A DNA stretch of 64,000 bases, taken from assembly GCF_000169175.1 (NCBI RefSeq), contig NZ_AAWS01000006.1:135192-199191 (forward strand), written 5' to 3'. Each line of letters opens with the position of its first letter. The first letter of the stretch is position 1. The notes under the pieces are model-generated. The model was not told the origin of the DNA and made no database searches. It saw only the letters and a program-made list of their open reading frames with translations. Both the position numbers and the translations under genes were made by a program. Shown here in pieces: positions 10,663 to 47,776 of the stretch. This stretch comes from Microscilla marina ATCC 23134. Lineage in GTDB: Bacteria > Bacteroidota > Bacteroidia > Cytophagales > Microscillaceae.

Positions 10663-10736
10663 TCCTCCTTAGCTCAGTTGGTTAGAGCATCTGACTGTTA
10701 ATCAGAGGGTCGTTGGTTCGAGTCCAACAGGAGGAG
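10663..10736 (+). tRNA. tRNA-Asn (anticodon GTT)
   Basis: Cloverleaf read by hand: acceptor TCCTCCT/AGGAGGA, D-arm GCTC AGTTGGTTA GAGC, anticodon loop CTGTTAA, T-arm GTTGG TTCGAGT CCAAC, discriminator G. No encoded CCA. Confidence 0.9.
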
Positions 10737-10837
10737 CGATATTTAGTGTTCATAGTGTTAAAGAATATTGTTGGTTAAAGGTAAAACTAAATTAGTTTTA
10801 CCTTTTTTTATTCAATGTAGCATTTTATCAATAATAC

Positions 10838-10911
10838 TCCTCCTTAGCTCAGTTGGTTAGAGCATCTGACTGTTAATCAGAGGGTCGTTGGTTCGAGTCC
10901 AACAGGAGGAG
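10838..10911 (+). tRNA. tRNA-Asn (anticodon GTT), second identical copy
   Basis: 74-nt sequence identical to the first copy, 175 bp downstream. Confidence 0.9.
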
Positions 10912-11555
10912 CAATACTTTCTTATCAAATTGCCTAAATAACCTTTAGTCAAAAATACCTAACTTTACTTTTTATTGTGATACCCTCCCATCTGAAAAGG
11001 TGTTTTAACTCAATAATTTTATACTTATAAAATTCTCACCCACTTTCCGCACGTGTATTTTAAAAATCAATAATTAACAAGTGCTTGAAGATCAGTAACT
11101 TATCAGTGTATTTTGCTTTAGGGAAAATACCTTATATCATTTAAAATCTCTTTTTGTTGCTAAGTGTAAAAACCCCTTAGAATATAATTCTTATTTTAAT
11201 GTTTTTATGAATTTTTATATTGAGAAATACCTGTTTAAGTCTTGAAAATTCTGAAGTATACGTGCGAAAAGTCGGTTCTCAGTTAAACCTAGTACCTTAA
11301 ACACTAAATACCTAACCCATTAAATTCGAACATACCCGAATCAAGTTCGGGATTTAGAAACTCGGCACAGTAGAACTGTAGCCTCGGTTCTTTGGCGACT
11401 TTTGCCCCCTGACTTTACTTTAAAAAACTTGCGTAGCTAAGGTTCCGATATGCATCGAAATTCAGAAAGCGAACTCTGCGCGATTTTTAAAGTTCGTCAG
11501 AAAACAAAACTCATCCCAAATAGTAGTGCATTTACTTAATGCTTAACGCCCTGGA

Positions 11556-12194
11556 TTACTTCATTTTAGGACGTACCGTTTTTTTCTTGGCAGCCTTTTC
11601 TTCTTCACTCAAAGGCGACTCTTCTTTTTTAATTCTTTTGTAAACAAATAATTGCCACTTTTCCTCTTCCACCATGTTTTTATCCATTTCGGCGCGAGCC
11701 AATGTAAAAAACAGGTCAGATAAACGATTGATATAAGCAGGAATGGCTTCGTGTACTTCATCTTCTTTCATAAGGCTTACTAGGTGTCGCTCACCACGAC
11801 GCATCTGCGTGCGTACCACATGGCACAAAGCAGACACTTCATTGCCTCCTGGCAACAAAAAATAATCAGAGGCAGTCCTTAAATTATTTTCTAACTGATC
11901 AATCCATTGCTCACAAAAATCTGCCCCATCGGTAGGCATGGGGTTTGTATTTACTTTTTTAACATCAGAGGGACGCGCCAAATGCGACATCATATCCATC
12001 ATATCTTTCTGAATTTTTCGCAAGTTGGTTTGCCACTCATGGCTAATATCTAATTTAGCCCTTAACAAACCAATGGTAGAGTTTACTTCATCAAGTGTAC
12101 CATAACATTCTACTCGAATATCATCTTTGAATACTCGCTTGCCACCGTATAAACCCGTTTTTCCGGCATCTCCTTTCTTAGTATATATTTTCAT
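11556..12194 (-). CDS. PduO-type ATP:cob(I)alamin adenosyltransferase
   Basis: MKIYTKKGDAGKTGLYGGKRV...ECYGTLDEVNSTIG: characteristic PduO-type N-terminus. Fits a B12-dependent IcmF elsewhere in the window. Confidence 0.85.
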   Translation of the reverse strand: MKIYTKKGDAGKTGLYGGKRVFKDDIRVECYGTLDEVNSTIGLLRAKLDISHEWQTNLRKIQKDMMDMMSHLARPSDVKKVNTNPMPTDGADFCEQWIDQLENNLRTASDYFLLPGGNEVSALCHVVRTQMRRGERHLVSLMKEDEVHEAIPAYINRLSDLFFTLARAEMDKNMVEEEKWQLFVYKRIKKEESPLSEEEKAAKKKTVRPKMK

Positions 12195-12796
12195 TGTTTT
12201 TTGTTTGAGGGCGGATAAGAGCTAAGCCTAAAGCAACCAGCACAATACAACATCTAGTAAGTGTTTGGGTCTCCTTTTGAATGGAGCGTACTATTCAGAT
12301 GATGGACTTGTAGAATTGACCTGTTAGTCTTGATCCAGCCCTGGTTCGCGAAAGCTTTATCAAATTGACAAATAAAGTAAAGTATCCTGGCTTGTGGAGT
12401 TTTTCCAGTTACAGTTGCGCGTCAGCTCATGATTTTCACACGATTCCTTATTACTTTATTTGCATAGCGTAAGAGTTTGGTTTTAAACCAAGCCCCCATC
12501 TTGACTTTTAATAATAGATGATAAACACCTTGCTTCCTGCAGAATAGCCTGAGAACTCATCTTTACTTTTAATAATGAAATGTAAACCATTCAAAAAATC
12601 AGGGTGAGTTCTAGCAAAAAGCAAGGTTATTATTTTCGTTTGTATCAAAAACCAAAATGAGTTTACACTCTAAACTATGGCAATAAAGATAACGCAAGAA
12701 GGGATGTTTTCAAAGCAAATATTTACAATGAGGCATAGCTTAGTAAACTACCCAAATAATCTCCTTCATAAAAAAACACCTCTCTTTTAAAAAACG

Positions 12797-19278: not shown

Positions 19279-19692
19279 TTAAGACTTACTCACTTTTGTT
19301 TCTTTACCAAGCAACCACTCCCTAGCTTCTGGCTCATTGTCAAAGTATTTCAATGCGGTCTCCATGTTTTGCACTGTCTGCTCAATACTCAGTTGTGATA
19401 TAAACTCTGCTGCTACTACCATTGCTGATTTAGGGGGCAGATAATCATTAAACTGTTGCGTTACCCAGTCTTGCAGCTCAGGATCAACTATAAAGTTAAA
19501 ATCTTGAGTCAACGACAAACTACCAACAAAAGGGTGATGATCACGAAAAACTTTCGCCAGTGCCAGTATTTCAGGTCTATATTGATCAACCGTAAGGTGC
19601 TGGGTACTGGAAGTCCACTTACTTATTATCCAAGAGTTTTCCGAATCATAAGAAACTTCCAGAAAGTCACTTTTATACTCTAATTCTACCAT
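19279..19692 (-). CDS. Paralog 1 of 9: small conserved protein, tentatively SpoIIAA-like/STAS-SEC14-like (PF11964-like) fold. Function unknown.
   Basis: MVELEYKSDFLEVSYDSENSWIISKWT...LSLTQDFNFIVDP...KSAMVVAAEFISQLSIEQTVQ...YFDNEPEAREWLLGK. Family consensus is shared across the nine copies. Confidence 0.8.
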   Translation of the reverse strand: MVELEYKSDFLEVSYDSENSWIISKWTSSTQHLTVDQYRPEILALAKVFRDHHPFVGSLSLTQDFNFIVDPELQDWVTQQFNDYLPPKSAMVVAAEFISQLSIEQTVQNMETALKYFDNEPEAREWLLGKETKVSKS

Positions 19693-20115
19693 TGCCTGAT
19701 AATTTATTGGTTTACTATATAAAAATAGAGAGTAAAATAAGGCATACTTTACCCTGCTATAAATTATTACTTATTAAATAATATGTTATAAATGCCTGTT
19801 AGCTTTCTTTCAACCTCGCTTTAAACATAGAACTCATCTCGTCTTTTAATAATGAGTTGCAAATCGTTCAAAAAAGTCAGACGAGCTCATATCCAATACT
19901 GCTATAAAAATCAATGATTTGTGTAGTTTTGGACTGTTACTTCATCAAATACAAGCACAAGGTGCTGGATTCTATTCAAGTAAAAAGTAACCAAAAATAA
20001 TTGTTGTGAAAGGTCAGTGAGCTTGTATATTAAAGCTACTGTATTTATTCTCTTTTCTGGTTCGTAATCCTTCCACACAAACCTCAAAAGCAAGCTACAG
20101 GTAACCGTACGGTTG

Positions 20116-20526
20116 TTAATTCTCACTCACTTTTGTTTGGTTCATGAGCCATTCTCTAGCTTCTTGCTCGTTTGAGAAATAATTAACTATTATATCCATG
20201 CTTTGCACTGTTTGCTCAATACTCAGTTGTGACACAAACTCTTGTGCTACTACCACTGCAGATTTAGAAGGCTGGTATCCTTCAAATTGCTGAGTTAACC
20301 ATTCCTGCGTTTCAGGATCAAGTATAAAGTAAAAATCTTGAGTCAATGCCAAACTACCAAAAACGGGCTTATGGTCAATAAAAGCCTGACATACCACCAA
20401 CACTTCCTGTTTGTATTGATCAATGGTAAGATAGCGGGTATTAGGTGTCCATTTACTTATCACCCAAGAATTTTCTGAATCATAAGAAACTTCGAGAAAT
20501 TCGCTTTTATACTCTAATTCTATCAT
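20116..20526 (-). CDS. Paralog 2 of 9 (same family)
   Basis: MIELEYKSEFLEVSYDSENSWVISKWTPNTRYLTIDQYKQE...YFSNEQEAREWLM. Confidence 0.8.
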   Translation of the reverse strand: MIELEYKSEFLEVSYDSENSWVISKWTPNTRYLTIDQYKQEVLVVCQAFIDHKPVFGSLALTQDFYFILDPETQEWLTQQFEGYQPSKSAVVVAQEFVSQLSIEQTVQSMDIIVNYFSNEQEAREWLMNQTKVSEN

Positions 20527-20768
20527 TGCCTGATAATTTATTGGTTTATTATATAAAAATAGAGAGCAAAATAAGACATACCCTACACTCTATAAGTTAT
20601 TATTTATCAAATAATACGTTATAAACACCTGTCAGTTTCCTTTGAATCTAAATTTCCAATGGCTTAAAACTCCCCTTCTGATGATATAGAAAGTGCTTAT
20701 AGGCTCCTGTTTTCCTTTTCCCCACAAAAACCACCAAGGTGAGTGCTACTACAGTTCAATCTTTGAGT

Positions 20769-21173
20769 TTAGCTCATTTTTGTTTTATCAAGCAACCATT
20801 CCTTAGCTTCTGACTCATTGTCAAAATAACGAACTATTACATCCAGATCTTGCACAGTTTGCTCAATGCTCAATTGTGATACAAACTCTGATCCTACTAC
20901 TATTGCTGATTTAGAGGGAAGGTACCCTTCAAAAATTTTTGTTATCCATTCCTGCATTTCAGGATCAACCACAAAATGAAAGTCTTGGGTTAATGACAAA
21001 ATGCCTGCAAGAGGTTGGTGATCCACAAAAACCTTAAGTAATGCCAATGTTTCCTGTTTGTATTGGTCAATAGTAAGGTAACGAGTGTTGTCTGTCCACT
21101 TGTTCACCACCCAAGAGTTTGCCGAATCATAAGAAACTTCTAGAAAATCACTTTTGTACTCTAATTCTATCAT
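20769..21173 (-). CDS. Paralog 3 of 9 (same family)
   Basis: MIELEYKSDFLEVSYDSANSWVVNKWTDNTRYLTIDQYKQE...YFDNESEAKEWLL. Confidence 0.8.
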   Translation of the reverse strand: MIELEYKSDFLEVSYDSANSWVVNKWTDNTRYLTIDQYKQETLALLKVFVDHQPLAGILSLTQDFHFVVDPEMQEWITKIFEGYLPSKSAIVVGSEFVSQLSIEQTVQDLDVIVRYFDNESEAKEWLLDKTKMS

Positions 21174-21317
21174 TGCCTGATAATTTATTTGTTTAATTAT
21201 ATAAAATAGAGAGCAAAATAAATCACACTTTACCCTCTACAAGTTATTACTTATCAAATAATACGTTATAAGCGTATGTAAGTGCCCTTTCAATCTAATT
21301 TTCCAATGACTTAAAGT

Positions 21318-21716
21318 TTATTTTACTTTACCAATCAACCAATCCCTGGCTTCTGGTTCATTGTCAAAGTAGCGAACCATCACATCCATATTTTGTAATG
21401 TTTGCTCAATACTCAGTTGTGATACAAACTCGGCTGCTACTACCATTGCAGATTTAGGGGGCAAATAATCATTAAACTGTTGTGCTGTCCATTCCTGCGT
21501 TGCAGGATCAATCACAAAGTGAAAATCTTGAGTCAGGGACAAATTACAAGCAAAAGGATAATGGTTCATAAAAACCTCACGTGCCGCCAATATTTCCTGT
21601 TTGTATTGGTCAATTGTAAGATGACGGGTATTGGGTGTCCACCTAGTTACCACCAAAGAGTTTTCCGAGTCATAAGAAATCTCAATAAATTCACTTTTGT
21701 ACTCTAATTCTATCAT
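21318..21716 (-). CDS. Paralog 4 of 9 (same family)
   Basis: MIELEYKSEFIEISYDSENSLVVTRWTPNTRHLTIDQYKQE...YFDNEPEARDWLIGK. Confidence 0.8.
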   Translation of the reverse strand: MIELEYKSEFIEISYDSENSLVVTRWTPNTRHLTIDQYKQEILAAREVFMNHYPFACNLSLTQDFHFVIDPATQEWTAQQFNDYLPPKSAMVVAAEFVSQLSIEQTLQNMDVMVRYFDNEPEARDWLIGKVK

Positions 21717-21962
21717 TGCCTGATGATTTATTGATTATATAAAAATAGAGCGTAAAACAAGTCACACTTTACCCTCTACAAGTTGTTAATTATCAAATAA
21801 TACGTTGTAAACGTATGGAAGTACCCTTTCAATCTAATTTTCTAATGACTTAAAATTCCCTTCTGATGACACGAAAAAGAGTACCAGTTCACTATCCTTT
21901 TACCCTACCCACAAAACCACTGGGGTAAGCAGTTACCACAATTTAATGTGCAGTCTTCAAGT

Positions 21963-22361
21963 TTAGCTTGCTTTGCCAAGCAACCAATCCTCGGCTTCAG
22001 ATTGACTGGCAAAGTATTTCACTGCGGTGTCCAAATCTTGCACTGTTTGCTCAATACTCAGTTGTGATACAAACTCTGCTGCTACTACCACTGCAGATTT
22101 AGGGGGCATATAATCAGTAAACTGTTGTACCACCCACTGCTGCAGGATGGGATCAATCACAAAGTGAAAATCCTGGGTTAATGACAAACTACCAGCAAAG
22201 GAATGATGGTCAACAAAAATCTGACGTAATGCCACTACTTCTGGCTTGTATCGGTCAATTGTAAGGTGACGGGTATTGGGTGTCCACCTACTTATCACCC
22301 AAGAATTTTCTGAATCATAAGAAACTTCGAGAAATTCACTTTTGTACTCTAATTCTACCAT
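21963..22361 (-). CDS. Paralog 5 of 9 (same family)
   Basis: MVELEYKSEFLEVSYDSENSWVISRWTPNTRHLTIDRYKPE...YFASQSEAEDWLLGK. Confidence 0.8.
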   Translation of the reverse strand: MVELEYKSEFLEVSYDSENSWVISRWTPNTRHLTIDRYKPEVVALRQIFVDHHSFAGSLSLTQDFHFVIDPILQQWVVQQFTDYMPPKSAVVVAAEFVSQLSIEQTVQDLDTAVKYFASQSEAEDWLLGKAS

Positions 22362-22594
22362 TGCCTGATTATTTATTGGTTAATTATATAAAAATAAAGA
22401 ATAAAATAGGGTATATTTCATTCTTTATCAAATAATACGTTATAAGTAGCAGCCAGTTTCTTTTCCATTGGCTTAAAATTCCCCTTGCGAGGATATAGAA
22501 AATGTTTATAGATTTCTAATTCATACATCTTTCATTTTCCCTACATAAACCATTAGGATAAGTACTACCACAGTTTAATGTATAGCCTTTAAGT

Positions 22595-23002
22595 TTAGCT
22601 CACTTTTTTTGCTTTACCAAGCAACCAATCCTTGGCTTCAGATTGACTGGCAAAGTATTTCACTGCGGCCTCCAGATCTTGCGCTGTTTGCTCAATACTC
22701 AGTTGCGATACAAACTCTGCTGCTACTACCACTGCGGATTTCGGGGGCATGTAACCAGTAAACTGTTGTACCACCCACTGCTGTGTTGCAGGATCAATTA
22801 CAAAGTAAAAATCTTGAGCCAACAATAAACTACCAGCAAAGGGATGATGGTCAACAAAAGCCTGACGAAACGCCATTACTTCCTGTTTGTATTGGTCAAT
22901 TGTAAGGTGAAGGGTATTGGGTGTCCACCTGGTTATCACCCAAGAATTTTCCGAATCATAAGAAATCTCTAGAAATTCACTTTTGTACTCTAATTCTACC
23001 AT
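22595..23002 (-). CDS. Paralog 6 of 9 (same family)
   Basis: MVELEYKSEFLEISYDSENSWVITRWTPNTLHLTIDQYKQE...YFASQSEAKDWLLGK. Confidence 0.8.
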   Translation of the reverse strand: MVELEYKSEFLEISYDSENSWVITRWTPNTLHLTIDQYKQEVMAFRQAFVDHHPFAGSLLLAQDFYFVIDPATQQWVVQQFTGYMPPKSAVVVAAEFVSQLSIEQTAQDLEAAVKYFASQSEAKDWLLGKAKKVS

Positions 23003-23239
23003 TGCCTGATAATTTATTTGTTGATTATATAAAAATAGAGAATAAAATAAGGCGTATTTTATCCTCTATCAAATAATACGTTATAAGCACCAGCCAGTTT
23101 CTTTTCCAATGGCTTAAAATTCCCCTTGCGATGATATAGAAAAATGCTTACAAGTTTCTAATTCATACATCTTTCATTTTCCCTACACAAACCACTAGCG
23201 TAAGCACTGCCACAGTTTAATGTGTAGCCTTTAAGTTAT

Positions 23240-23644
23240 TTAGCTTACTTTTTCTTTACCAATCAACCACTCCCTGGCTTCAGGTTCATTGTCAAAGTAT
23301 TTCACTGCGGTCTCCATATCTTGTACTGTTTGTTCAATACTCAGTTGTGCTACAAACTCGGCTGCTACTACCACTGCCGATTTAGGGGGCAGATAATCAT
23401 TAAGTTGTTGTGCCGTCCATTCCTGCGTTGCAGGATCAATCACAAAGTAAAAATCTTGATTCAGCGACAAATTGCAAGCAAAAGGATAATGATTAATAAA
23501 AACCTGACGTACCGCCAATATTTCCTCTTTGTATTGGTCAATTGTAAGGTGAAGGGTATTGGGTGTCCACTTACTGATCACCCAAGAGTTTTCCGAATCA
23601 TAAGAAACTTCGAGAAATTCACTTTTGCACTCTAATTCTATCAT
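23240..23644 (-). CDS. Paralog 7 of 9 (same family). Near-identical to paralog 8.
   Basis: MIELECKSEFLEVSYDSENSWVISKWTPNTLHLTIDQYKEEILAVRQVFINHYPFACNLSLNQDFYF... Confidence 0.8.
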   Translation of the reverse strand: MIELECKSEFLEVSYDSENSWVISKWTPNTLHLTIDQYKEEILAVRQVFINHYPFACNLSLNQDFYFVIDPATQEWTAQQLNDYLPPKSAVVVAAEFVAQLSIEQTVQDMETAVKYFDNEPEAREWLIGKEKVS

Positions 23645-23878
23645 TACCTGATAATTTATTTGTTGATTATATAAAAATAGAGAATAAAATAAGGCGTATT
23701 CTATCCGCTATCAAATAATACGTTATAAGCACATGCCAATTTCTTTTCCAATGGCTTAAAATCCCCTTTCCAAATCATATAGAAAAATGCTTATAGGTTT
23801 CTAATTCATACATCTTTCACTTTCCCTGTACCAACCATCGCAGTAAGCACTGCCATAATCTAATGTATGCCTTTAAAT

Positions 23879-24283
23879 TTAGCTTGCTTTTTCTTTACCA
23901 AGCAACCATTCCCTAGCCTCTGGTTCATTGTCAAAGTATTTCACTGCGGTCTCCATATCTTGTACTGTTTGTTCAATACTCAGTTGTGCTACAAACTCGG
24001 CTGCTACTACCACTGCCGATTTAGGGGGCAGATAATCATTAAGTTGTTGTGCCATCCATTCCTGCGTTGCAGGATCAATCACAAAGTGAAAATCTTGATT
24101 CAGCGACAAATTGCAAGCAAAAGGATAATGATTAATAAAAACCTGACGTACCGCCAATATTTCCTCTTTGTATTGGTCAATTGTAAGGTGAAGGGTATTG
24201 GGTTTCCATCTACTGATTACCCAAGAGTTTTCCGAATCATAAGAAACTTCGAGAAATTCACTTTTGTACTCTAATTCTACCAT
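23879..24283 (-). CDS. Paralog 8 of 9 (same family). Near-identical to paralog 7.
   Basis: MVELEYKSEFLEVSYDSENSWVISRWKPNTLHLTIDQYKEEILAVRQVFINHYPFACNLSLNQDFHF... Confidence 0.8.
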   Translation of the reverse strand: MVELEYKSEFLEVSYDSENSWVISRWKPNTLHLTIDQYKEEILAVRQVFINHYPFACNLSLNQDFHFVIDPATQEWMAQQLNDYLPPKSAVVVAAEFVAQLSIEQTVQDMETAVKYFDNEPEAREWLLGKEKAS

Positions 24284-24520
24284 TGCCTAGTAATTTATTT
24301 GTTGATTACATAAAAACATAGAATAAAATAAGGTATATTTTATCCTCTATCAAATAATACGTTATAAACACATGCCAGTTTCTTTTCAATCTAAACTTCC
24401 AATCCCCCTTCCAAATCATATAGAAAAATGCTTATAGATTTCTAATTCATACATCTTTCACTTTCCCTGTACCAACCATCGCAGTAAGCACTGCCATAAT
24501 CTAATGTATAGCCTTTAAAT

Positions 24521-24925
24521 TTAGCTTGCTTTTTCTTTACCAAGCAACCATTCCCTAGCCTCTGGTTCATTGTCAAAATAACAAACTGCTCCATCTAAGC
24601 TCTGAAGTGTTTGTTCAATACTCAACTGCGACACAAACTCTGCCGCTACTATTGTTGCCGATTTGGCAGGAAAATAACCTTCAAACTGTAGCATTACCCA
24701 ATCTTGCAGTTCAGGGGCAACTATAAAGTTAAAATCCTGAGCCAATGACAAGTTGCCAGTAAGAGGTTGGTGATTAGCGAAAGCCTTCACCAGTGCATGT
24801 ATTTCGCGTTTGTATTGGTCGACAGTGAGGTAACTGGTATTGGCTGTCCACTTACTTATTACCCAAGAATTTTCCGAATCATAAGAAATTTCCAAAAAAT
24901 CGCTTTTGTACTCTAATTCTATCAT
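24521..24925 (-). CDS. Paralog 9 of 9 (same family)
   Basis: MIELEYKSDFLEISYDSENSWVISKWTANTSYLTVDQYKRE...YFDNEPEAREWLLGK. Confidence 0.8.
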   Translation of the reverse strand: MIELEYKSDFLEISYDSENSWVISKWTANTSYLTVDQYKREIHALVKAFANHQPLTGNLSLAQDFNFIVAPELQDWVMLQFEGYFPAKSATIVAAEFVSQLSIEQTLQSLDGAVCYFDNEPEAREWLLGKEKAS

Positions 24926-25054: not shown

Positions 25055-26950
25055 CTAATTTTCCAATGACTTAAAATCCCCTCTGATAATACGAAATCGC
25101 TTACGGGCTTCTACCACATAAATACTCCCAGGAAATTTCGTTAAGTGGTTTCGGTAATATTCCTTGGCTTTCTCAGGGTTTTTAAGGTATTCTTCGTAGA
25201 TTTTTCCTATGGTAAAATGGGCATCATCAGCCAATATATCTTGCCCATGCTGTTTTACAATTTGTTCAAGCACTTCGATGGTTTCTTGAAATTTAGCCAT
25301 TTTAAGCAGTAACTTAGATTTGCTCCATAAAATTTCATCTTTCAAACTGTGGTCTTTGTACTTTTTTTCCATCTCAACCAGCTTATCCAAAGCTTCTTTA
25401 TCTTTATGCTGAAACATCAACAGCTCTACTCCAGCGTAGGCTTTCATTGCCGAGTTGGTAGTGTCCATATCCAATGCAGTGTTATCCCTGATCAATAAAC
25501 TCAAATTCATTGCGTCGTTGGCAATTTCACGGGTAGTGGCTTCTTTCAAAATATCTAAATGCCCCTGTGCCAACTCAAAATCGCCCTTAAAATAAGAAAG
25601 TTTCCCATTGCGTAGCTTTGCCTCATACCCTAAAGGCCTTCTCTTTCGCGTTTTCTCCACCTGTGAGTAAAGCAAAGTAGCTTCCCAGGGTTCTCCCTTC
25701 AAAATATAAATATCGCCCAGGTCGAGGCGGCATTGGGCTATAAAGCGTTGATTGTACCCGCTCAGTTTGATAGCATCTTTTAAAGTAACCACTGCAGTGT
25801 CTTTCTTATCAAGATAAAAAGCCTGTAATAACGCAATGCTTCTCATGGCGTTCAACGTACGAAAGTTGCGCCCCAGGTCTTTCAATAGCTGGCTATAGTC
25901 ACCAATTAATGACTCAATATCAGTTCTAGCTACGGGGTAAGTGTTCTTTACTACTGCTTCTTTGGCTTTGATTAAGTAATGGCGAGCCACTGAATAATTG
26001 CTACCTTTCGGATACTTCTTGACCACATAGGCAAACATTCGCTTGGCATTTTTGTAGTCCTCATTGCGCATAGCAATCATTCCAATGTTCAACAATTCGC
26101 TCCCTTCCTGTCGATAACGTCGGTCAAGTGCTTTGGCTTGAATAAAGGCTCTGTAAAACAACTTTTGTTGTAAATAGATCCAGAGTAGAAACTCGTTATA
26201 GATAATCTCACCAGGCTGCTTCTGTAGCTTTGTAAGCAATATTTTTTCAAACTTCTCTAAGTCTTTTTGAGTTGTCAGGCGATCTTGCAAGGCTCCTTTG
26301 ACAGATTCCAGGTTTTTGCGATCGTCCAATGCGACATTGATATATTCATCAATCATTGGTTCAAACTTGCCCAAAGTAGCATACACATTGGCCAGTTCTT
26401 GAGCAAACAGGTACTTGTTGGCAATGCCTCGGCGGGCATTCAAATATATCTTCTCTGCCCAGGTAGCTTTATCAAGCAATACAAAGTGCTCAGCGGCCGC
26501 TGACACCACGTGATCAGGTTTCTTACGTACATCATTCACCACCCGCTCGAACTGCTTGTCAGCCCGCCCTATCTTGCCTTGTCGTTCGAGTACAAAGCCA
26601 TAGTCAATAGGCAAAGTAGGATTTTCAGGCTCAATTCGCATGCGTCGCTTAATCAATTTTTCGGCATCTTTAAATTGTTTTTGAGCCAGCAACGACGCCA
26701 GGTAGTTAGTATAGACTTGTTGTAGGTAGGTGGTACGCAGTGAAAGTTTTTCATATAAACTATTGGCTTTTTCATACTCCTTCTTCTGAAAGTACTCATC
26801 TGCCAATTGTAGGTTTTTATTTTGTGCCACTGCTTGCGGTGGCATAATCAAATTTGCAAATATTATGATCCCTAACATCAAAAAAAATCGGGTAATGGTC
26901 TGATTCATTTTTTTATCTTTTTTTATTTCATGGCTAATATTCATGTTCAT
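25055..26950 (-). CDS. Tetratricopeptide-repeat protein with N-terminal signal peptide/TM
   Basis: MNQTITRFFLMLGIIIFANLIMPPQAVAQ, then repeated TPR-like A/Y/L-spaced helices (YEKANSLYEK, FKDAEKLIKRR, EYKNAKRMFAYVVKKYP). The true start may be the internal ATG at 26908. Confidence 0.75.
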   Translation of the reverse strand: MNMNISHEIKKDKKMNQTITRFFLMLGIIIFANLIMPPQAVAQNKNLQLADEYFQKKEYEKANSLYEKLSLRTTYLQQVYTNYLASLLAQKQFKDAEKLIKRRMRIEPENPTLPIDYGFVLERQGKIGRADKQFERVVNDVRKKPDHVVSAAAEHFVLLDKATWAEKIYLNARRGIANKYLFAQELANVYATLGKFEPMIDEYINVALDDRKNLESVKGALQDRLTTQKDLEKFEKILLTKLQKQPGEIIYNEFLLWIYLQQKLFYRAFIQAKALDRRYRQEGSELLNIGMIAMRNEDYKNAKRMFAYVVKKYPKGSNYSVARHYLIKAKEAVVKNTYPVARTDIESLIGDYSQLLKDLGRNFRTLNAMRSIALLQAFYLDKKDTAVVTLKDAIKLSGYNQRFIAQCRLDLGDIYILKGEPWEATLLYSQVEKTRKRRPLGYEAKLRNGKLSYFKGDFELAQGHLDILKEATTREIANDAMNLSLLIRDNTALDMDTTNSAMKAYAGVELLMFQHKDKEALDKLVEMEKKYKDHSLKDEILWSKSKLLLKMAKFQETIEVLEQIVKQHGQDILADDAHFTIGKIYEEYLKNPEKAKEYYRNHLTKFPGSIYVVEARKRFRIIRGDFKSLEN

Positions 26951-27060
26951 ACATTAAAATATACTACAATAAAAATAACATCTTTCGAAAACACATTTCG
27001 AAAGTAACAGTATTAACGGCAATTCCTATCGATAAGATTTTTTTATCTTTTAAAAAATTC

Positions 27061-27800
27061 TGCTTTCAAGCGAAAAGCTTCTAACCTCTTTTAAATAAAG
27101 AACAATAAATTATTTAATTACTTAAGTATTATTATTATTATCATGCTGTGGATAACTTTTGTTTTTCACTTGAGAATATTTTCCTGCCAATATTGCTAAA
27201 TATACATTGTCGAGGTTCACTTTTATTTCGAGGAGTTATACCCACCTTATTCGATTTGTCCACATACTTATCCACATTGTTTCAATTTGTTTTGCTAAAA
27301 TCATGATCGAGAATCGATGTTGATAACCCCTATTTTTTGGTGGATAAACATGTGGATAAATTGTGGATAAACAAAGGGTTTTACACACCCCTATAGTTTT
27401 TCAACATTGGAGTTAAAGTTATCCACCTAAATATGTGGACAAATCAGGCACTTATCCACACAATTTTTAGGGTTATCCACAGGTTTTGTGGATAATGTGG
27501 ATAAGTAGTGGGGGGATCTATGACTTGAAACTAGAGTTATCTACGTTGATTTTTAACATTTGTGGATAAATTAATGGTTTATCCACAAAGTTATCCACAT
27601 TTATAGTCGAGTCTGTTGACATAAATAGCATTACATTCGATAATATCGCTTGGTTTTCGATAAGTATTTGCTGTCAATTGGTGTAGAAAGCCATTTAATT
27701 ATTTAGGTGTAGCAATATGTTTAATCTATTAAATGGCTAATGAGGAGTTGTTTTCGAAGAAAAGTAAGTAGCAGAGGTTATCCACAAATCAATATAAAAT
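27061..27800. other. Putative chromosomal replication origin (oriC): DnaA-box cluster plus adjacent AT-rich candidate unwinding element (27061-27140)
   Basis: Perfect TTATCCACA/TGTGGATAA 9-mers at 27147, 27268, 27351, 27362, 27452, 27473, 27488, 27497, 27561, 27579, 27591 and 27779. One-mismatch boxes at 27256, 27339, 27419 and 27434. 600 bp with no ORF. The preceding stretch ttaaataaagaacaataaattatttaattacttaagtattattattattatc is more than 85% AT. Confidence 0.6.
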
Positions 27801-27898
27801 TTGGGCAAAATCATTTTTTAGCGCTCACCATGACGTTCGATAAACTTGTTTTATCAAGTGATAAAGCTCACTTGTAAGTGGTTTATATAGCTTTAAGT

Positions 27899-29557
27899 TT
27901 AGAATTTAAGGATAATATTTTGTTCCCAGTTGGCTCTTAGTTGAATAGAACTAGGGTAAAATGTAATGTTTTCGGCAGGCTTGTTTTCCTTATAGTTTGA
28001 GAAATCCCACTTACCATTATTGTTTTCATCAATGATAATTCTGATGCTGTAACTGCCTGGAGCCAGGTTATCAAATTTAAAACTATTGCCTGTCACTTCG
28101 CCACTTTTACGTTCTTTGATTATCTGAAACTCTTGGTTGAGTAGTTGTATGATAAAATGGGGGCTTTGGGTTTCTATAGCAATATTTACTAGGCCTATTT
28201 TGGTAGGGTCTAGTCGGTTGAGCGTAGTTTTGATCATTTGGCTTGAGTCGTTTACTGCACTTACAAATGCAGCACTGTCAGCTACTAGTTTTATAACGTT
28301 TTTAAAAGAAACCGGGCGGGTGATGTTTAATTGGGTTTTAAACTGGTTCCATTCAAACTTGGCACTACTGTCTATCAATGGCTTTAGGTTTACCGTATCG
28401 GCATCTACCAGGTACTTGAGCTTTTCGGCTGCAAACTGTACTATAGGTTTGCTAAATTTAACAGTAAGGTCTAGTTTGTTTCCTACAATGCCTAGTGTAT
28501 TTTTAGGTTGAATGTCTATTTTAAAGGTCGCTTTGTCTTTTTCTTTGACAGGCTTATTGTTGAAACGAAGATTTACCTCTTCACTCAATCTATTTTGGGC
28601 AGAGTCTTGAGCTATGATACGAAGCCGCAAGGAGTCTAAGCCTTGCATATTGTAGAAGGTCAACTTCTTGCCACGATCAGTCAGGTTATACAATACTTTT
28701 TGGCGCAGGTTGGTTTGTCCCGAATCTACTTTGAGTGTTTGAACTCCTTCGTTAAATTTTATTTCAAAATAGTGTTTTTGACGCAATTTGCCAATCATAC
28801 GAGGGGCATCATAATCTTCTTGTACCAGGTTTAAGTTAAGTGAATCTTGACTTCCTTGAGTGAGGTCAACTATTTCGGGGGCAAACCCAATCAATTCATT
28901 TTTATTATAATACTTGTTATTGTTGGCATCCTGAATAGCATATAATCTATAGCGATTGGCTTTTATATTTTTGAAGTGGTAAATGCCAGCATCATTGGTT
29001 TGGGTAAGGTAGTATGGTTCATCTTTGTCTACTTTAAGCGTATCATCTACTTTATATAATGCTACAATGGTTTTTTTAGCTGCTTTATTTGTTAACGGAA
29101 TCATTACTTTTCCTTTTATTTCCATTGTGTCCAATTGACTACCAGTACTAAAAGCCAGCCTTACTGGTGTAGGGTTGCCTTCGGTAATGTCTTGAATACT
29201 TTCCCGGAAATCAAGGTTGTAGGTAGTATTGCTGTCCAAGGGTTGTAAAAAGGTAATGCGTAGCCTTTTCTTGCTTATTTTAAATGTATAATCTTTGACT
29301 CTTGGGGTAATGATTAATTCTTGCTTTAGCTTGGGTGCTTTGATCCACTCATTAAAATATAATTCTATTTTGTCGTCCTTATAATTGAGTTGTTCAAGCT
29401 TAGGGTACGAACGAGCCGTATCCATGGTAGGAGGCAAGCTATCTTTGGCACCACCAGTGGGTGCCATAATATTGGCACAACCACTCACACTAAGGAGCAT
29501 CCAAACCACCATACCAAGGTATACTATATATAGGTATATAACACGAGTCATCATCAA
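27899..29557 (-). CDS. Hypothetical lipoprotein, 552 aa, beta-rich
   Basis: Lipoprotein-type signal (MLLSVSGCAN). No catalytic motifs recognised. Confidence 0.6.
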   Translation of the reverse strand: MMMTRVIYLYIVYLGMVVWMLLSVSGCANIMAPTGGAKDSLPPTMDTARSYPKLEQLNYKDDKIELYFNEWIKAPKLKQELIITPRVKDYTFKISKKRLRITFLQPLDSNTTYNLDFRESIQDITEGNPTPVRLAFSTGSQLDTMEIKGKVMIPLTNKAAKKTIVALYKVDDTLKVDKDEPYYLTQTNDAGIYHFKNIKANRYRLYAIQDANNNKYYNKNELIGFAPEIVDLTQGSQDSLNLNLVQEDYDAPRMIGKLRQKHYFEIKFNEGVQTLKVDSGQTNLRQKVLYNLTDRGKKLTFYNMQGLDSLRLRIIAQDSAQNRLSEEVNLRFNNKPVKEKDKATFKIDIQPKNTLGIVGNKLDLTVKFSKPIVQFAAEKLKYLVDADTVNLKPLIDSSAKFEWNQFKTQLNITRPVSFKNVIKLVADSAAFVSAVNDSSQMIKTTLNRLDPTKIGLVNIAIETQSPHFIIQLLNQEFQIIKERKSGEVTGNSFKFDNLAPGSYSIRIIIDENNNGKWDFSNYKENKPAENITFYPSSIQLRANWEQNIILKF

Positions 29558-41547: not shown

Positions 41548-44304
41548 ATGGATAAATTTTCTTATATCGGAAACGCTGATGTGGCTTATGTAGAAGAGCT
41601 GTACCAGCAATATAAAAACGACCCCGAATCGGTTGACAGTACCTGGCAATATTTCTTTAAAGGATTTGACTTTTCGGTAGAGCAATATGGAGAACCAGGT
41701 GAAAACACCAACGGACAAAACGGGGCTGCTTCTACAACCAAAGGTAAAGCTTCTAAAACCGATATAGAGAAAGAAATCAGCGTTCGTGAGTTGATCTCGG
41801 CTTACCGTTCGCGTGCCCATCTTTTGTCTACAACCAACCCAGTAAGACCACGCCGCGACCGTCGGGCTCGGCTCGAACTCAAAGATTTTGGTTTGACCGA
41901 TGCCGACCTTAATACTACCTTTGAGGCAGGACGTACTATTTTTGATCGCCCAGCTACTTTGAAAGAAATCACTGACGCCCTTAAGCATATTTATGAGCGC
42001 ACCATTGGTTTTGAGTATGCCTATATTCGTGAGCCAGAAGTACTGGAGTGGTTCAAACAAAAAATTGAGAGCGAGTCGCTCAACTTCAATCCTTCGTCTG
42101 ACTACAAAAAAAGAATTTTATCTAAACTCAATGAGGCAGTAGCCTTTGAGAATTTTTTACATACCAAATACATTGGACAAAAACGCTTCTCAATAGAAGG
42201 AGGCGAAAGCACTATTCCAGCCTTAGACGCGGTGATTAACCGTAGTGCAGAGCTAGGAGTAAAAGAAGTAGTAATAGGTATGGCACACCGGGGGCGTCTC
42301 AACGTGTTGGTAAACATTATGGGTAAAACCTATGAAGATGTTTTCAACGAGTTTGAAGGCGAAATGCCCGAAGAAGCAATGGGAGATGGTGATGTAAAAT
42401 ATCACTTGGGTTTTGCTACCGAAATAGACACTCCTGAAGGGCACAGGGTAAATTTACAATTAGCTCCTAACCCTTCACACCTTGAGGCGGTAGATCCCTT
42501 GGTAGAAGGATACGTACGTGCCAAGTGTGACCGTATGTATGATGGTAATGTAGATCGAATATTGCCTGTTTTGATTCACGGAGATGCGGCGATTGCCGGA
42601 CAGGGTTTGGTATATGAAATTACCCAAATGTCGAAACTGGAAGGCTACCATACCGGAGGAACTATTCATTTTGTAATCAACAACCAAGTAGGTTTTACTA
42701 CCAATTTTGAAGATGCCCGTTCTAGTATTTACTGTACCGACGTGGCAAAAATGACTGACTCACCTGTATTGCACGTAAACGGTGATGATCCTGAGGCAGT
42801 AGTATTTTGCTGTAGGTTGGCAGCTGAGTTTCGTGAGAAATTTAACCGCGATATTTTCATCGACTTGGTGTGTTACCGTAAACATGGGCACAACGAAAGT
42901 GATGAACCTAAATTTACCCAGCCTGCGTTGTACAAGCTGATCTCTAAGCACCCCAATCCACGTGAACTATACTTGAGTCGTCTCAAAGAAAGTGGTGACT
43001 TGGACGCAAGTATTGCCAAAGAAATGGAGCAGGAGTTTAAGCAAATGTTACAGGACAGGCTCAATATGGTTAAGCAAAAAGCCGTTGCATATAAATTACA
43101 ACCTGTAGAGAAAGAATGGGAAGAGTTGCGTTGGTCTACTCCTACCGACTTTGATAGGGTATACGATACCAAAATCACGGCTGATATGGTGGATAAAATA
43201 GGGAAGGCATTGACCTTTTTGCCAAAAGGTTTCAAACCTATTCGCCAGATAGAAAAATTGCTCGAAAAACGCAAAGACATGTTCTTTGGCAGTAAAATAC
43301 TTGATTGGGCTTCTGCCGAATTGCTGGCGTATGGGTCTATACTTGCTGAAGGTAAGATTGTACGCTTTAGTGGACAAGACGTAAAACGAGGTACTTTTTC
43401 GCACCGCCACGCTGTATTGCATGATGCCAATACCAGTGAACCTTTCTATAGCCTTGATTATATTCAAGAAGGGCAAGAGAAAATGCGCATCTACAACTCA
43501 CTATTGTCTGAATATGGCGTACTAGGTTTTGAGTTTGGCTATGCGATGGCAAACCCTCACGCTCTTACCATTTGGGAAGCCCAATTTGGAGATTTTGCCA
43601 ATGGTGCACAAATTATCATAGATCAGTTCATTACTGCTGTGGAGTCTAAATGGCAAAAAATGAATGGCTTGGTTATGTTGTTGCCGCACGGTTATGAAGG
43701 GCAAGGACCTGAACACTCAAGTGCCCGACTAGAGCGTTTTTTGCAAATGTCAGCAGAGTACAACATTATTGTGGCTAACTTGACTACCCCTGCCAACCTT
43801 TTCCATATTTTACGACGTCAGTTGGCTTGGGAATTCCGCAAGCCGTTGGTGATTATGTCACCTAAGTCGTTATTGCGTGACAAGAAAGTAGTGTCCTCTG
43901 TAGCTGAGTTTACCGATGGGCAGTTTCATGAAGTCATAGGTGATGACTATGTAGAGGCTAAAAAGGTGAAAAAAGTATTGTTGTGTACTGGTAAAATCTA
44001 TTACGACTTGCTTAAAAAGCAACAAGACGATAAGCGCAAAGATGTAGCAATTATTCGTGTAGAACAATTGCACCCATTCCCTACTAAGTCTATCCACTTA
44101 AAATTGGGTAAATATGTCAATGCCAAAACGTATTGGGTGCAGGAAGAACCAGTAAATATGGGTGCCTGGAGTTACATTCAGCGAGTATATCGTTATGACC
44201 AAATAGAGGTCATCGCTCGTAAGTCAAGTGCTTCACCTGCCACTGGTTATCACACAGTACATAGCCAAGAGCAAGCGACTATTATAGAGGCTGCTTTTAA
44301 GTAA
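41548..44304 (+). CDS. sucA: 2-oxoglutarate dehydrogenase E1 component
   Basis: MDKFSYIGNADVAYVEELYQQYKNDPESVDSTW N-terminus. ThDP-dependent E1o architecture, 918 aa. Confidence 0.92.
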   Translation: MDKFSYIGNADVAYVEELYQQYKNDPESVDSTWQYFFKGFDFSVEQYGEPGENTNGQNGAASTTKGKASKTDIEKEISVRELISAYRSRAHLLSTTNPVRPRRDRRARLELKDFGLTDADLNTTFEAGRTIFDRPATLKEITDALKHIYERTIGFEYAYIREPEVLEWFKQKIESESLNFNPSSDYKKRILSKLNEAVAFENFLHTKYIGQKRFSIEGGESTIPALDAVINRSAELGVKEVVIGMAHRGRLNVLVNIMGKTYEDVFNEFEGEMPEEAMGDGDVKYHLGFATEIDTPEGHRVNLQLAPNPSHLEAVDPLVEGYVRAKCDRMYDGNVDRILPVLIHGDAAIAGQGLVYEITQMSKLEGYHTGGTIHFVINNQVGFTTNFEDARSSIYCTDVAKMTDSPVLHVNGDDPEAVVFCCRLAAEFREKFNRDIFIDLVCYRKHGHNESDEPKFTQPALYKLISKHPNPRELYLSRLKESGDLDASIAKEMEQEFKQMLQDRLNMVKQKAVAYKLQPVEKEWEELRWSTPTDFDRVYDTKITADMVDKIGKALTFLPKGFKPIRQIEKLLEKRKDMFFGSKILDWASAELLAYGSILAEGKIVRFSGQDVKRGTFSHRHAVLHDANTSEPFYSLDYIQEGQEKMRIYNSLLSEYGVLGFEFGYAMANPHALTIWEAQFGDFANGAQIIIDQFITAVESKWQKMNGLVMLLPHGYEGQGPEHSSARLERFLQMSAEYNIIVANLTTPANLFHILRRQLAWEFRKPLVIMSPKSLLRDKKVVSSVAEFTDGQFHEVIGDDYVEAKKVKKVLLCTGKIYYDLLKKQQDDKRKDVAIIRVEQLHPFPTKSIHLKLGKYVNAKTYWVQEEPVNMGAWSYIQRVYRYDQIEVIARKSSASPATGYHTVHSQEQATIIEAAFK

Positions 44305-44331
44305 GAAAAGATAGTATTTATAAAATAAACA

Positions 44332-44366
44332 AAACCCCATTTGATTGTATATTGAGTGGGGTTTTA
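44332..44366. terminator. Hairpin between convergent sucA and the sensor phosphatase gene
   Basis: aaaaccccatttgattgtatattgagtggggtttt. Confidence 0.5.
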
Positions 44367-47300
44367 TAATTTTATCCCTACCACCAAAATGTCATCTCTT
44401 TGACTTGTTTGGTGCATATATTCATCCAGGTTTTCTTCTAGCACTCGTTGTTGTTCGGACATTGGTTTCAAAGCCTGCGAAGCCAGGAGTTTTTTGAGTT
44501 TTTGTGAGCCAAAACTTTTTCTGGCTACATTGTTCTGATCACTATACCCGTCAGTGGTCAAAAATATTAAATCATTTTTGTGTAAGGTAAGTGTGTGCTC
44601 TTCAAAAACCTGATGGTTTCTGGGAACTATGCCAATAGAAATTCTACTACCTTTGACTTCACCAAACTCTTGACTATCACTTTTAATGTAATACATAGGG
44701 CGTTTGGCACCACCAAAAACAACCTTTACAGTGCCATCAGGCAAGTATTGAATATTGCACAGCGCCATGTCCATTCCTGATTGATTACCCGTTTTTTCTC
44801 GTTGTAGGGCGTGCTTTAACTCAGATTTTAGTGTTTCTAATATTTGGGCAGGTTGAATAATATTTTTTTGGTGTACAATCTCATTCAGCAAAGTATAACT
44901 CATCATACTCATAAAAGCTCCTGGCACCCCGTGTCCGGTACAATCTATAGCGGCTACTAGCCTTATATCCTTGCCATCTTTAGTTTTATCTGCCCAATAA
45001 AAATCTCCCGATACGATGTCACGTGGACGAAAAAGCACAAAATAGTTTTTAAATATTCCTTGCATTCTGTCATTAAAAGGCAAAATAGCATCTTGAATAA
45101 GCTTGGCTGCCTCTATACTCTTTTTTACCTGAAGGTTTTTCTGATAAAGCTGTTGGTTTTTTTTTTCAATAAAGTCACGTTGAGCGGTAATTTCTTCGTG
45201 TTGTTGCTGGAGCTCTTCGTGTTGTACCATAATCTCTTCTTGTTTATGCTGAAGCTCAACAGTACGTTGTTGCACCTTTTTTTCAAGGCTGGCTTTTTGT
45301 TTAAGCAACCGACTTGCATTGATGCGTAAAACGATTAATACAAATAATATTGCACATACCACATACAAGGTATAAGCCCACCAAGTGCGGTGCCAGGGAG
45401 GGTAAACCTTGAACTCGAAACGTGCCAACTTGCTTAGGTCACCATGCGCATTTTTAGCCCTTACTTCAAAAACATAATTACCTTCGGGCAAATTGGTATA
45501 ATTAGTATTGCGTTCTATGCTCCATTTAGACCATTTTTCTTGAAAACCTTTTAACCTGAACTGATACTGGTTTTGGTTGCTATGTTCATAAAACAAAGAA
45601 GCGTAATCAAACCTAAGCGTGTTGAACTGATAATCAAGAGAGACAGAATGTAGGCTGTTTTCAGTAAAAAGAAGAGAATCATTATTAATGAATACTTTCC
45701 TGATAATGGTTTGATAAGTGTTGGGAGGACTCTTTTTCCATTGGTCATCATATAATATCATAGTTTGGTCTTTGGCTATTGCCACCCGTCCGTCTGTTAA
45801 CTCTATGATAGCTTCACTATCAAGTGAAGTTTGTATAGCTCTGAAAGGTTTTTCTACGAGTGTATATCCGTTGTTAGAGGTTGCTTTTAGCATGGCCAAC
45901 TCGACTTTATCAGGTTTTTTTATCTGGATAAATAAATTCCCCTTTCTTGTTTCATATATGTAATATACTTGTTTGCCTTTGGTGTAAGCATGTAAAATAG
46001 GGTGAGGATGAAAACGTTTTTTTGCCCGGTCAAATGCATATATGCCATCTGTTGTACCAAAAATTAGCTGACCGTTTTTTAAGCGAAACACTATATTGGC
46101 TGCAGTAGAAGGTAAGCCATCCTTGGCTGTATATACTACTTGCTTTACCACACTATCTTTTGCGGCATTGAGCCATACCCTAAAAATACCTAACTGGAAA
46201 TCGTGAATCCATAAACTTTCATCTTTATCTTCTATAATAGAGTATATTTTTGCCGTTACTTTTTCGCCTTTTACTTTTTTCTTTATCCATTTCCCTTTTT
46301 TCTGAGCCATCAAAAATAATCCCTGGTTATAAGTACCTATCATCAGTTTAGAAGGGGCGTTTTTTAGTGCTACAAGTGTTTGTGTATAAGCTTGATCTAC
46401 AATCCTTTCAGGCTTTCCATTTTTCATTTCATAAATAGTACCGGTATGTGCCACATAAAACCTGCCTTGGTGTTCCAAAAAGTCCCATACTCCATCTTTG
46501 ATTCCTTTTACTTCTTCAAAACGACCTTGTTTGTTCAAGAATGAAAGCCCATTCATAGTACCCACATAGAGCCTTTGGTTATGATAGGTCATCCTTAGAA
46601 TTTGCCCGGAAAAGCCGTGCCTTTTGTCCCAATAGGTAAAAGAGCTATTATTATGGATTTGCCCAATTCCTTTTTCACCCAAGGTCCATATATTACCTTC
46701 TTTATCAAAATCAAAATTGTAGATTAAAAGGGTGGGAGTATCTCGATTAGAAGCAATAAAACGTTGAATTTTACCATCTTTGCCTAATACATACAATCCT
46801 TTGTTTTTGATGGTAAGCGCAATAGAGCCATTGTTCAGCACCTTGAAATAATAAATAACAAAAGTCGTGTTTAATTTGGCAAAAACATTGTCGAGTTCAG
46901 TTGTAAAAGCTTCTTCTCTCTGAAATTTGCCGTTTTTTAGGTATAACCAACGCATTTGATGAGTTTTGGCATCAAACGCAAGCAAAGTGTCTTGGCTATA
47001 GTTTATTATACGCCATATATCAGGCAGGTTTTTTACTCCTTGAAGGAGGTTAGTTTTTACTAGTTTTTTTCCATTCCAAGCAAATAAATCACTTCCAGCT
47101 TGTGCATATATATTATTGTTAAAATGAAAGACTTGTTTGCCTTTTTTAGCAATGGGGGCAAATTGTCCCTTATTATAAATTGTTGAATCATCAGGATCTA
47201 CATAAGTAAACTTGCCATTTTGATAAATCAATGCTTTTTTAAACCAATCTATAAAAGCAACGCCTTTGTCCAGAGGTAAAATAGTTCGAATCGTTTTAAA

Positions 47301-47669
47301 TTTTCTCTGTTCTTTAGGAATAGATGGAATCAAGGATACATATTTGCGGTTTTGTCCGGTAGAGTCGTACCCCAAATAGCCTAATTCATTGTTGGAGCCC
47401 ACAAATAGGGTGTCTTGGTAATAACCAATAGCAAAGACAAAACCTTTATTCTTTATTGGGAATTTACGCCATTCTTTACCATCATATTGTAGAATTCCAA
47501 AGTTATCGCCCACATACACCATGCCTGTTTTATCTTGCGTCAACGCCCAACTCTGGTATCCTCCTTTATAGTCTTTAGGTAGGTGTTTGGTCACGTAGGG
47601 AGTTTGCGCCTGAGAGACAGTAGCGGCATAAACAAGTAAAACATTGATAATTAAGAACAGTTTCATCAT
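44364..47669 (-). CDS. Sensor protein: signal peptide, two-component-regulator propeller (Reg_prop) beta-propellers, Y_Y_Y domain, TM helix, coiled coil, C-terminal SpoIIE/PP2C-family Ser/Thr phosphatase
   Basis: Y_Y_Y region FRLKGFQEKWSKW...YVFEVRAKNAHG; TM WWAYTLYVVCAILFVLIVL; phosphatase GDFYWADK...AAIDCTGHGVPGAFMSMM...TTDGYSDQ...QRDDILVVGIKL. Confidence 0.8.
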   Translation of the reverse strand: MMKLFLIINVLLVYAATVSQAQTPYVTKHLPKDYKGGYQSWALTQDKTGMVYVGDNFGILQYDGKEWRKFPIKNKGFVFAIGYYQDTLFVGSNNELGYLGYDSTGQNRKYVSLIPSIPKEQRKFKTIRTILPLDKGVAFIDWFKKALIYQNGKFTYVDPDDSTIYNKGQFAPIAKKGKQVFHFNNNIYAQAGSDLFAWNGKKLVKTNLLQGVKNLPDIWRIINYSQDTLLAFDAKTHQMRWLYLKNGKFQREEAFTTELDNVFAKLNTTFVIYYFKVLNNGSIALTIKNKGLYVLGKDGKIQRFIASNRDTPTLLIYNFDFDKEGNIWTLGEKGIGQIHNNSSFTYWDKRHGFSGQILRMTYHNQRLYVGTMNGLSFLNKQGRFEEVKGIKDGVWDFLEHQGRFYVAHTGTIYEMKNGKPERIVDQAYTQTLVALKNAPSKLMIGTYNQGLFLMAQKKGKWIKKKVKGEKVTAKIYSIIEDKDESLWIHDFQLGIFRVWLNAAKDSVVKQVVYTAKDGLPSTAANIVFRLKNGQLIFGTTDGIYAFDRAKKRFHPHPILHAYTKGKQVYYIYETRKGNLFIQIKKPDKVELAMLKATSNNGYTLVEKPFRAIQTSLDSEAIIELTDGRVAIAKDQTMILYDDQWKKSPPNTYQTIIRKVFINNDSLLFTENSLHSVSLDYQFNTLRFDYASLFYEHSNQNQYQFRLKGFQEKWSKWSIERNTNYTNLPEGNYVFEVRAKNAHGDLSKLARFEFKVYPPWHRTWWAYTLYVVCAILFVLIVLRINASRLLKQKASLEKKVQQRTVELQHKQEEIMVQHEELQQQHEEITAQRDFIEKKNQQLYQKNLQVKKSIEAAKLIQDAILPFNDRMQGIFKNYFVLFRPRDIVSGDFYWADKTKDGKDIRLVAAIDCTGHGVPGAFMSMMSYTLLNEIVHQKNIIQPAQILETLKSELKHALQREKTGNQSGMDMALCNIQYLPDGTVKVVFGGAKRPMYYIKSDSQEFGEVKGSRISIGIVPRNHQVFEEHTLTLHKNDLIFLTTDGYSDQNNVARKSFGSQKLKKLLASQALKPMSEQQRVLEENLDEYMHQTSQRDDILVVGIKL

Positions 47670-47776
47670 AGTGCATATAGTATAGTCGTGTAAGCCAAAG
47701 AGAGCCCTTGGCGTGAGTTATAGTTAATTTTATAACAAAGCAGCTGCCTTGCAAAGTACACAACAGGTAAGGAGTG

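Follow-up and report, generated by a model that had tools for sequence, protein, structure and literature searches.

The 948-bp intergenic region between a TPR gene and a Big_5 gene, at positions 26951-27898 (ORF list) of the analysed 64-kb stretch of DNA (hereafter the window), is very probably the chromosomal origin of replication (oriC) of Microscilla marina, and an ordinary DnaA-dependent one. This assignment is based on three independent lines of evidence: i) the compositional bias of the two strands switches inside a dense cluster of DnaA boxes; ii) an ordered set of sequence elements at the edge of this cluster has the appearance of an unwinding module; and iii) the region occupies the position of the oriC of Cytophaga hutchinsonii. 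The initial annotation of this DNA had proposed an oriC here, an interpretation which gains support from the strand switch within the cluster, from the succession of box, spacer, trios and AT-rich DNA and from the orthology with C. hutchinsonii.

DnaA boxes in the intergenic region

Perfect TTATCCACA/TGTGGATAA boxes occur 12 times in both orientations within 640 bp (27147-27786), in accordance with the earlier count of at least 12. The whole window holds 17 such boxes, compared to 0.63 expected by chance, with 12 of the 17 located in the gap, and shuffling the window never yielded the observed number. Compared with the rest of the window, the gap is about 160 times as dense in perfect boxes and about 40 times as dense when one mismatch is allowed. 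Boxes with one mismatch, announced as about four, are indeed present, although there are five of them (starts at 27256, 27318, 27339, 27419 and 27434). Both tandem pairs that had been described also exist, one at 27351/27362 with a gap of 2 bp and the other, formerly placed at 27488/27497 and hence off by one, at 27487/27496, where the boxes abut (0-bp gap). The main array at 27256-27599 would represent the region in which DnaA oligomerises (Table 1).

This significant cluster is located in non-coding DNA. Only two ORFs, of 50-52 aa, extend over the box array, and alignment with relatives revealed that sequence conservation across them tracks the boxes and not the codons, which upholds the earlier description of this DNA as free of ORFs. 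Rfam and tRNA scans gave no match inside the gap, while a scan with a sigma-70 promoter model, which is not applicable to Bacteroidota promoters, returned fewer matches than shuffled controls. A hairpin at 26982-27004, kept in the closest relatives according to the alignment, may act as a leader or attenuator of the TPR gene, and any link between it and the origin would be hypothetical.

Table 1. Coordinates of the putative origin of M. marina and of its component and flanking features
Feature	Position	Strand	Description or basis
Intergenic region, whole (very probable oriC)	26951..27898		ORF list, boxes, cumulative G-C minimum, box clusters at the same gap across Cytophagales
TPR gene (631 aa), flanking marker	25055..26950	-	Pfam; reads away from origin
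Hairpin, 9-bp stem followed by T-rich tail	26982..27004	-	In TPR leader, between AT-rich tract and TPR start codon
AT-rich tract, candidate DNA unwinding element	27089..27145		57 bp, 89% AT
Seven in-phase central-A trinucleotides, DnaA-trio-like	27124..27144	+	AAG TAT TAT TAT TAT TAT CAT; strand reading 5'-TGTGGATAA-3' at the adjacent box
2-bp GC spacer, trios to box	27145..27146		Sequence
Outermost perfect box, beside unwinding element	27147..27155	-	TGTGGATAA on plus strand; within extended motif AAAAGTTATCCACA
Main DnaA-box array	27256..27599		Ten perfect and five one-mismatch boxes, both orientations
Perfect boxes of main array (starts)	27268, 27351, 27362, 27452, 27473, 27487, 27496, 27561, 27579, 27591
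Lone distal perfect box, Big_5 side	27778..27786	+	Kept in three sequences aligning there; gap shorter in two relatives
Big_5/DUF2141 gene (552 aa), flanking marker	27899..29557	-	Pfam; 3' end faces origin

The surroundings of the gap vary between species. Around ten tandem ORFs of 132-137 aa form a paralog array at 19279-24925, without a Pfam match for the one ORF tested, and in a relative (L087) the TPR gene is directly followed by a 183-aa gene, rimM and rpsP, with no such array. Because of this gene order in L087, the array looks like an insertion or expansion beside the origin in M. marina. On the other side of the gap, positions 30729-33272 (minus strand) encode an MVP-like protein of 847 aa with a major-vault-protein shoulder, Vault_3 repeats and a weak SPFH/Band 7 match, and this gene also adjoins TetR and Big_5 genes in another relative (L086). 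The Big_5 neighbour itself recurs in relatives belonging to Rhodocytophaga, Fulvivirga, Cytophaga and Microscilla.

The fact that the neighbouring paralog array is missing at this place in relatives, and hence marks a local insertion or expansion, could be taken as a sign that the boxes belong to the origin of an integrated plasmid or other mobile element. The likelihood of this is close to nil: there is no similarity to any of 72,556 plasmids, the site is surrounded by housekeeping genes of the chromosome, the flanks contain no genes for replication initiators, integrases or transfer, and the gap with both of its flanking genes is conserved across the whole order. A plasmid origin was dropped on the basis of the missing plasmid match and the order-wide synteny, which effectively refutes it.

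Strand asymmetry across the box cluster

In this 64-kb window of a draft genome the cumulative G-C minimum was found at 27275, inside the box array. The minus strand carries 76% of the coding sequence to the left of the site and 53% to its right, which confirms the left-hand bias and right-hand mix of orientations reported previously and corrects the former figure of 78% for the left. Since the genes on the left are thus mostly on the minus strand, third-codon positions were taken by gene strand (GC3) in order to part replication skew from coding skew. With the plus strand as reference, genes on that strand have a GC3 skew of -0.059 to the left of the site and +0.053 to its right, and the corresponding values for minus-strand genes are -0.110 and +0.086. 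The sign therefore changes on both gene strands, which makes the switch independent of the direction of transcription. Leading strands are G-rich, and the polarity observed within these 64 kb (C-rich left, G-rich right) is that of an origin and not of a terminus; the latter reading was rejected for this reason.

Comparable data from relatives are mixed. In the 6-kb flanks of related loci (55 in total), raw GC skew had the expected direction for 27 of the 40 that carry boxes and for 6 of the 15 that lack them, a weak difference in a measure that is confounded by conserved gene orientation. When split by strand, GC3 skew is clean in Fulvivirga lutea (-0.093 left, +0.093 right), where all genes are on one strand, and ambiguous in Rhodocytophaga rosea and C. 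hutchinsonii.

Dense boxes without dnaA nearby would also be expected of a DnaA-titrating or recycling locus like datA/DARS of Escherichia coli, at which many DnaA molecules are bound to regulate initiation without firing, and the smaller box groups at 39.9 kb and 61.3-61.5 kb demonstrate that M. marina has boxes outside the origin. However, datA and DARS contain few boxes only and are not known to be situated at skew switches. The M. marina site is not of this kind, namely a small cluster off the skew switch and devoid of an unwinding element: it coincides with the switch of origin polarity, an AT-rich tract and trio module adjoin it, and its ortholog in C. hutchinsonii is the oriC listed in DoriC, which the authors of that database report as experimentally confirmed (PMC3531139). 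A titration or recycling locus is consequently a highly improbable explanation, and oriC is the reading retained.

The AT-rich tract and the putative unwinding module

At the level of sequence, the box array is flanked by an AT-rich element that qualifies as a putative DNA unwinding element. Its AT content peaks over the 40 bp from 27105 (92.5% AT), a value reached at no more than 8 positions of the 64 kb. The initial annotation had drawn a tract of more than 85% AT at 27061-27140; the tract is real, but that interval is 80% AT and the core is shorter, comprising the 57 bp (89% AT) of 27089-27145. Read on the plus strand, the TPR-side edge of the cluster presents the AT-rich tract, seven trios, the GC spacer and the perfect box 27147-27155, and this order of box, spacer, trios and AT tract is, judged from its elements, the layout of known origins.

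The search rule that has been published for the basal unwinding system (BUS) demands at least three 3'-NAN-5' trios within 16 bp of a DnaA box, in which up to two mismatches are allowed, on the strand complementary to 5'-TTATCCACA-3' (PMC8287927), and the strand rule was checked against the notation of the BUS table, 3'-AATAGGTGT..GAT-5' (PMC8287927). The M. marina sequence conforms to this rule with seven trios, a 2-bp spacer and a perfect box, all invariant in four close relatives. Such a rule is permissive in AT-rich DNA, which makes the trio criterion a weak one. At least three in-phase trios are present in only 29 of 59 relatives, and reading the opposite strand gives longer runs. The canonical trio strand was not favoured among these 59 relatives: in-phase runs in this reading, which have a central T on the box strand, exceeded those in the opposite reading in 12 loci and fell short of them in 37. 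Moreover, the repeat unit is ATA/AAT, which renders the trio register ambiguous.

The general arrangement is nevertheless kept in relatives, in which a box or tandem boxes are followed by a short GC-rich spacer, often by CTAATAATA, and then by AT-rich DNA near the TPR start. Spacers at the equivalent place are short and GC-rich (gc, gcc, gccc, gac, ggc); in many relatives the GC spacer precedes CTA ATA ATA, in which the proximal trio is 3'-GAT-5'. In almost every related locus, AT content amounts to 75-90% over the 60 bp past the last box.

Conservation of the locus across Cytophagales

Conservation was assessed at close range by aligning the region with four Microscilla-clade sequences (81-98% identity of the TPR proteins). 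No variation was observed among these relatives in the boxes or in the box-spacer-trio module, whereas the spacers between the boxes diverge and contain indels; the boxes are, as far as this alignment indicates, under strong purifying selection. The TPR protein encoded beside the gap is 100% identical to the NCBI protein of M. marina ATCC 23134 and, at a greater distance, has single clear orthologs across Cytophagales (45-57% identity). Gene order in R. rosea and F. lutea is ybeY, mnmG (gidA), a methyltransferase gene, the Big_5 gene, the gap and the TPR gene, and the gap contains 13 of the 15 boxes with at most one mismatch found in the 21.8-kb locus of R. rosea, and 6 of 9 in that of F. lutea. 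An order-wide survey covered 80 Cytophagales loci, with one genome per species, and in most of them the 500-bp window richest in boxes starts 375-850 bp upstream of the TPR match. Of 53 gaps, 50 contain TATCCAC, compared to 6.6 expected, and the only 7-mers enriched in gaps across the order are those derived from the DnaA box. Among individual loci, 24 perfect DnaA boxes precede the TPR gene in one from Cytophagales UBA2561 (L053), and another (L013) carries, besides its upstream cluster, a second dense box cluster about 2.3 kb downstream of the TPR start.

The link to a functional origin comes from C. hutchinsonii ATCC 33406, for which the BUS supplementary table lists a 42-nt string under DoriC ORI30030113 (NC_008255, 4057938-4057980; PMC8287927). 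This string matches at 42 of 42 positions in locus L084 (7805-7846), inside the Big_5/TPR gap (7550-8000). According to the DoriC 5.0 paper, oriC plasmids able to replicate have provided experimental confirmation of the C. hutchinsonii origin (Xu et al. 2012, PMID 21935590, cited in PMC3531139), in agreement with the DoriC prediction (PMC3531139). The M. marina cluster is therefore orthologous in position to an origin reported to be functional.

Not all families of the order follow this pattern. Hymenobacteraceae (Adhaeribacter, Pontibacter and Botryobacter; L041, L049, L052, L055, L061, L068 and L076) possess the TPR ortholog without upstream boxes, and in Pontibacter sp. MBLB2868 the region upstream of this ortholog is occupied by a 703-aa gene with a terminator 130 bp away. 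Gene and origin are therefore separable, and in this family the origin must lie elsewhere than by the TPR gene.

The existence of a TPR ortholog without boxes in Hymenobacteraceae, the position of the cluster in the 5' region of the TPR gene and the conserved hairpin and blocks between the AT-rich tract and the TPR start codon would all be compatible with a different role of the M. marina site, either as a DnaA-regulated promoter of the TPR gene, or as a member of a pair of origins or the remnant of a former one, in which case the active origin would be elsewhere (for example by dnaA). There is very little probability in any of these, given that 17 strong boxes over 640 bp far exceed the needs of a promoter operator, that the skew switches at the site, that the boxes are under strong purifying selection and that DoriC lists the equivalent site of C. 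hutchinsonii, reportedly in agreement with the experimental origin (PMC3531139).

Additional motifs, satellite boxes and other features of the window

Besides the boxes, the gap includes four same-strand TTATCGAW motifs (27028, 27636, 27656 and 27836) and two copies of TTGCTAAA(T)AT.CAT..TCGA about 100 bp apart (27193-27213 and about 27291-27311), all invariant in the Microscilla clade. TTATCGAW and TTAGCAA-type blocks are not enriched in the gaps of other Cytophagales and, in view of this lack of order-wide enrichment, were left out of the mechanism as sites for a second factor.

Two smaller groups of boxes are found elsewhere in the window. Three DnaA boxes (TTATCCACC, TTATCCACA and inverted TTATCCACA) are located within 50 bp at 39935-39987, in the interval on which an EAD11-domain gene and a 188-aa ORF converge with their 3' ends. 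The second group belongs to a 72-nt direct repeat (61294-61365 and 61465-61536; 88% identical, 171-bp spacing), each copy of which contains a perfect TGTGGATAA box and a degenerate inverted box. A GWxTD-domain gene (59793-61280, minus strand) and coaX (61626-62408, plus strand) diverge from this repeat pair, which lies in their promoter region and could serve either as a promoter under DnaA control or as a satellite site for DnaA binding. The window contains 7 copies of the extended motif AAAGTTATCCAC, compared to 0.03 by chance, of which 3 are in oriC, 2 at 39935-39987 and 2 at 61.3-61.5 kb. It is conceivable, though rather unlikely, that the invariant non-box blocks are sites for an origin-binding regulator and that the satellites within 35 kb (39935-39987 and 61294-61536) are DnaA regulators resembling datA/DARS. 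To our knowledge, from a limited literature search, neither lineage-specific origin control blocks nor datA/DARS-like satellites have been described in Bacteroidota.

Other elements of the window include two identical tRNA-Asn(GTT) genes (10663-10737 and 10838-10912, both on the plus strand) and a cobalamin riboswitch (12360-12512, minus strand) upstream of a 212-aa ORF (11556-12194). The region 41548-54003 comprises sucA, encoding 2-oxoglutarate dehydrogenase E1 (41548-44304), the E2 gene (52447-54003) and, between them, two very large minus-strand sensor genes of 1101 and 1336 aa with Y_Y_Y/Reg_prop and SpoIIE phosphatase domains.

Proposed initiation pathway and implications

Based on established knowledge of oriC, initiation at this site would proceed as follows. 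DnaA would bind the approximately 17 strong boxes at 27147-27786 and form an oligomer, from which an ATP-DnaA filament would extend from the box 27147-27155 across the 2-bp GC spacer and onto the trios at 27124-27144, on one strand. This filament would melt the 57-bp, 89% AT tract at 27089-27145, helicase would be loaded at the melted tract and forks would then depart in both directions. DnaA binding, the site of melting, helicase loading and firing are all predicted here by analogy with origins in general.

Placing the origin on the draft genome aids contig orientation, the interpretation of strand bias and growth-rate estimates from read depth, as well as the building of oriC shuttle plasmids like those available for C. 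hutchinsonii. In addition, the Big_5/TPR gap is a reliable landmark for oriC across most Cytophagales, with the exception of Hymenobacteraceae. The current understanding of replication initiation is left unchanged by the M. marina oriC.

Distance from dnaA and comparison with known origins

Adjacency to dnaA/dnaN is typical of oriC in many phyla and is not a defining property. No such adjacency exists in the window: a Pfam scan of each ORF of at least 300 aa detected no DnaA or DnaN domains, consistent with the earlier statement that neither gene is present, and in three further species neither of them was seen in the 8-10 kb around the orthologous gap. The initial annotation had regarded the origin as uncoupled from dnaA, as in some Bacteroidota, and this is in line with the published record, since a large distance between oriC and dnaA is common in Bacteroidetes, as judged from DoriC (PMC4755523). 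The distance between oriC and dnaA in M. marina is in this respect ordinary for the phylum. For example, the DoriC oriC of Prevotella intermedia OMA14 (PMC4755523) is likewise a multi-box cluster at a GC-skew transition and not near dnaA, although this species belongs to another order and its origin has other flanking genes.

Like the BUS of Bacillus subtilis and other bacteria (PMC8287927, PMC6669920), the putative M. marina module has a box near central-A trios on the TGTGGATAA strand, followed by AT-rich DNA. The trios of M. marina are mostly 3'-TAT-5', in contrast to the BUS consensus 3'-GAT-5', and a single box is adjacent to them where many relatives have a tandem pair. The register and strand of the A/T repeat are not clearly constrained across relatives.

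The oriC of E. coli contains a few high-affinity sites plus low-affinity sites. It resembles the M. marina region in having a box array beside an AT-rich unwinding element (gidA / oriC / mioC) far from dnaA; M. marina, on the other hand, has 12 perfect boxes, and thus many more consensus boxes, and no GATC/SeqA system is evident in it. As in E. coli, mnmG (gidA) is a near neighbour of the origin in most Cytophagales, where it is transcribed towards the origin, although it is not in the M. marina window.

In C. hutchinsonii, mnmG is two genes off, while the corresponding side in M. marina is rearranged and carries TetR, MVP-like and TMEM260-like genes. The boxes of C. hutchinsonii are also fewer and more degenerate than those of M. 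marina, and its gap is 450 bp long versus 948 bp. Nevertheless, the two species belong to the same order, Cytophagales, and both have a box cluster in the same Big_5/DUF2141-TPR gap, with a box, a GC spacer, an (A/T)TAATAATA element and an AT-rich tract by the TPR start, and with no dnaA within 8 kb in C. hutchinsonii.
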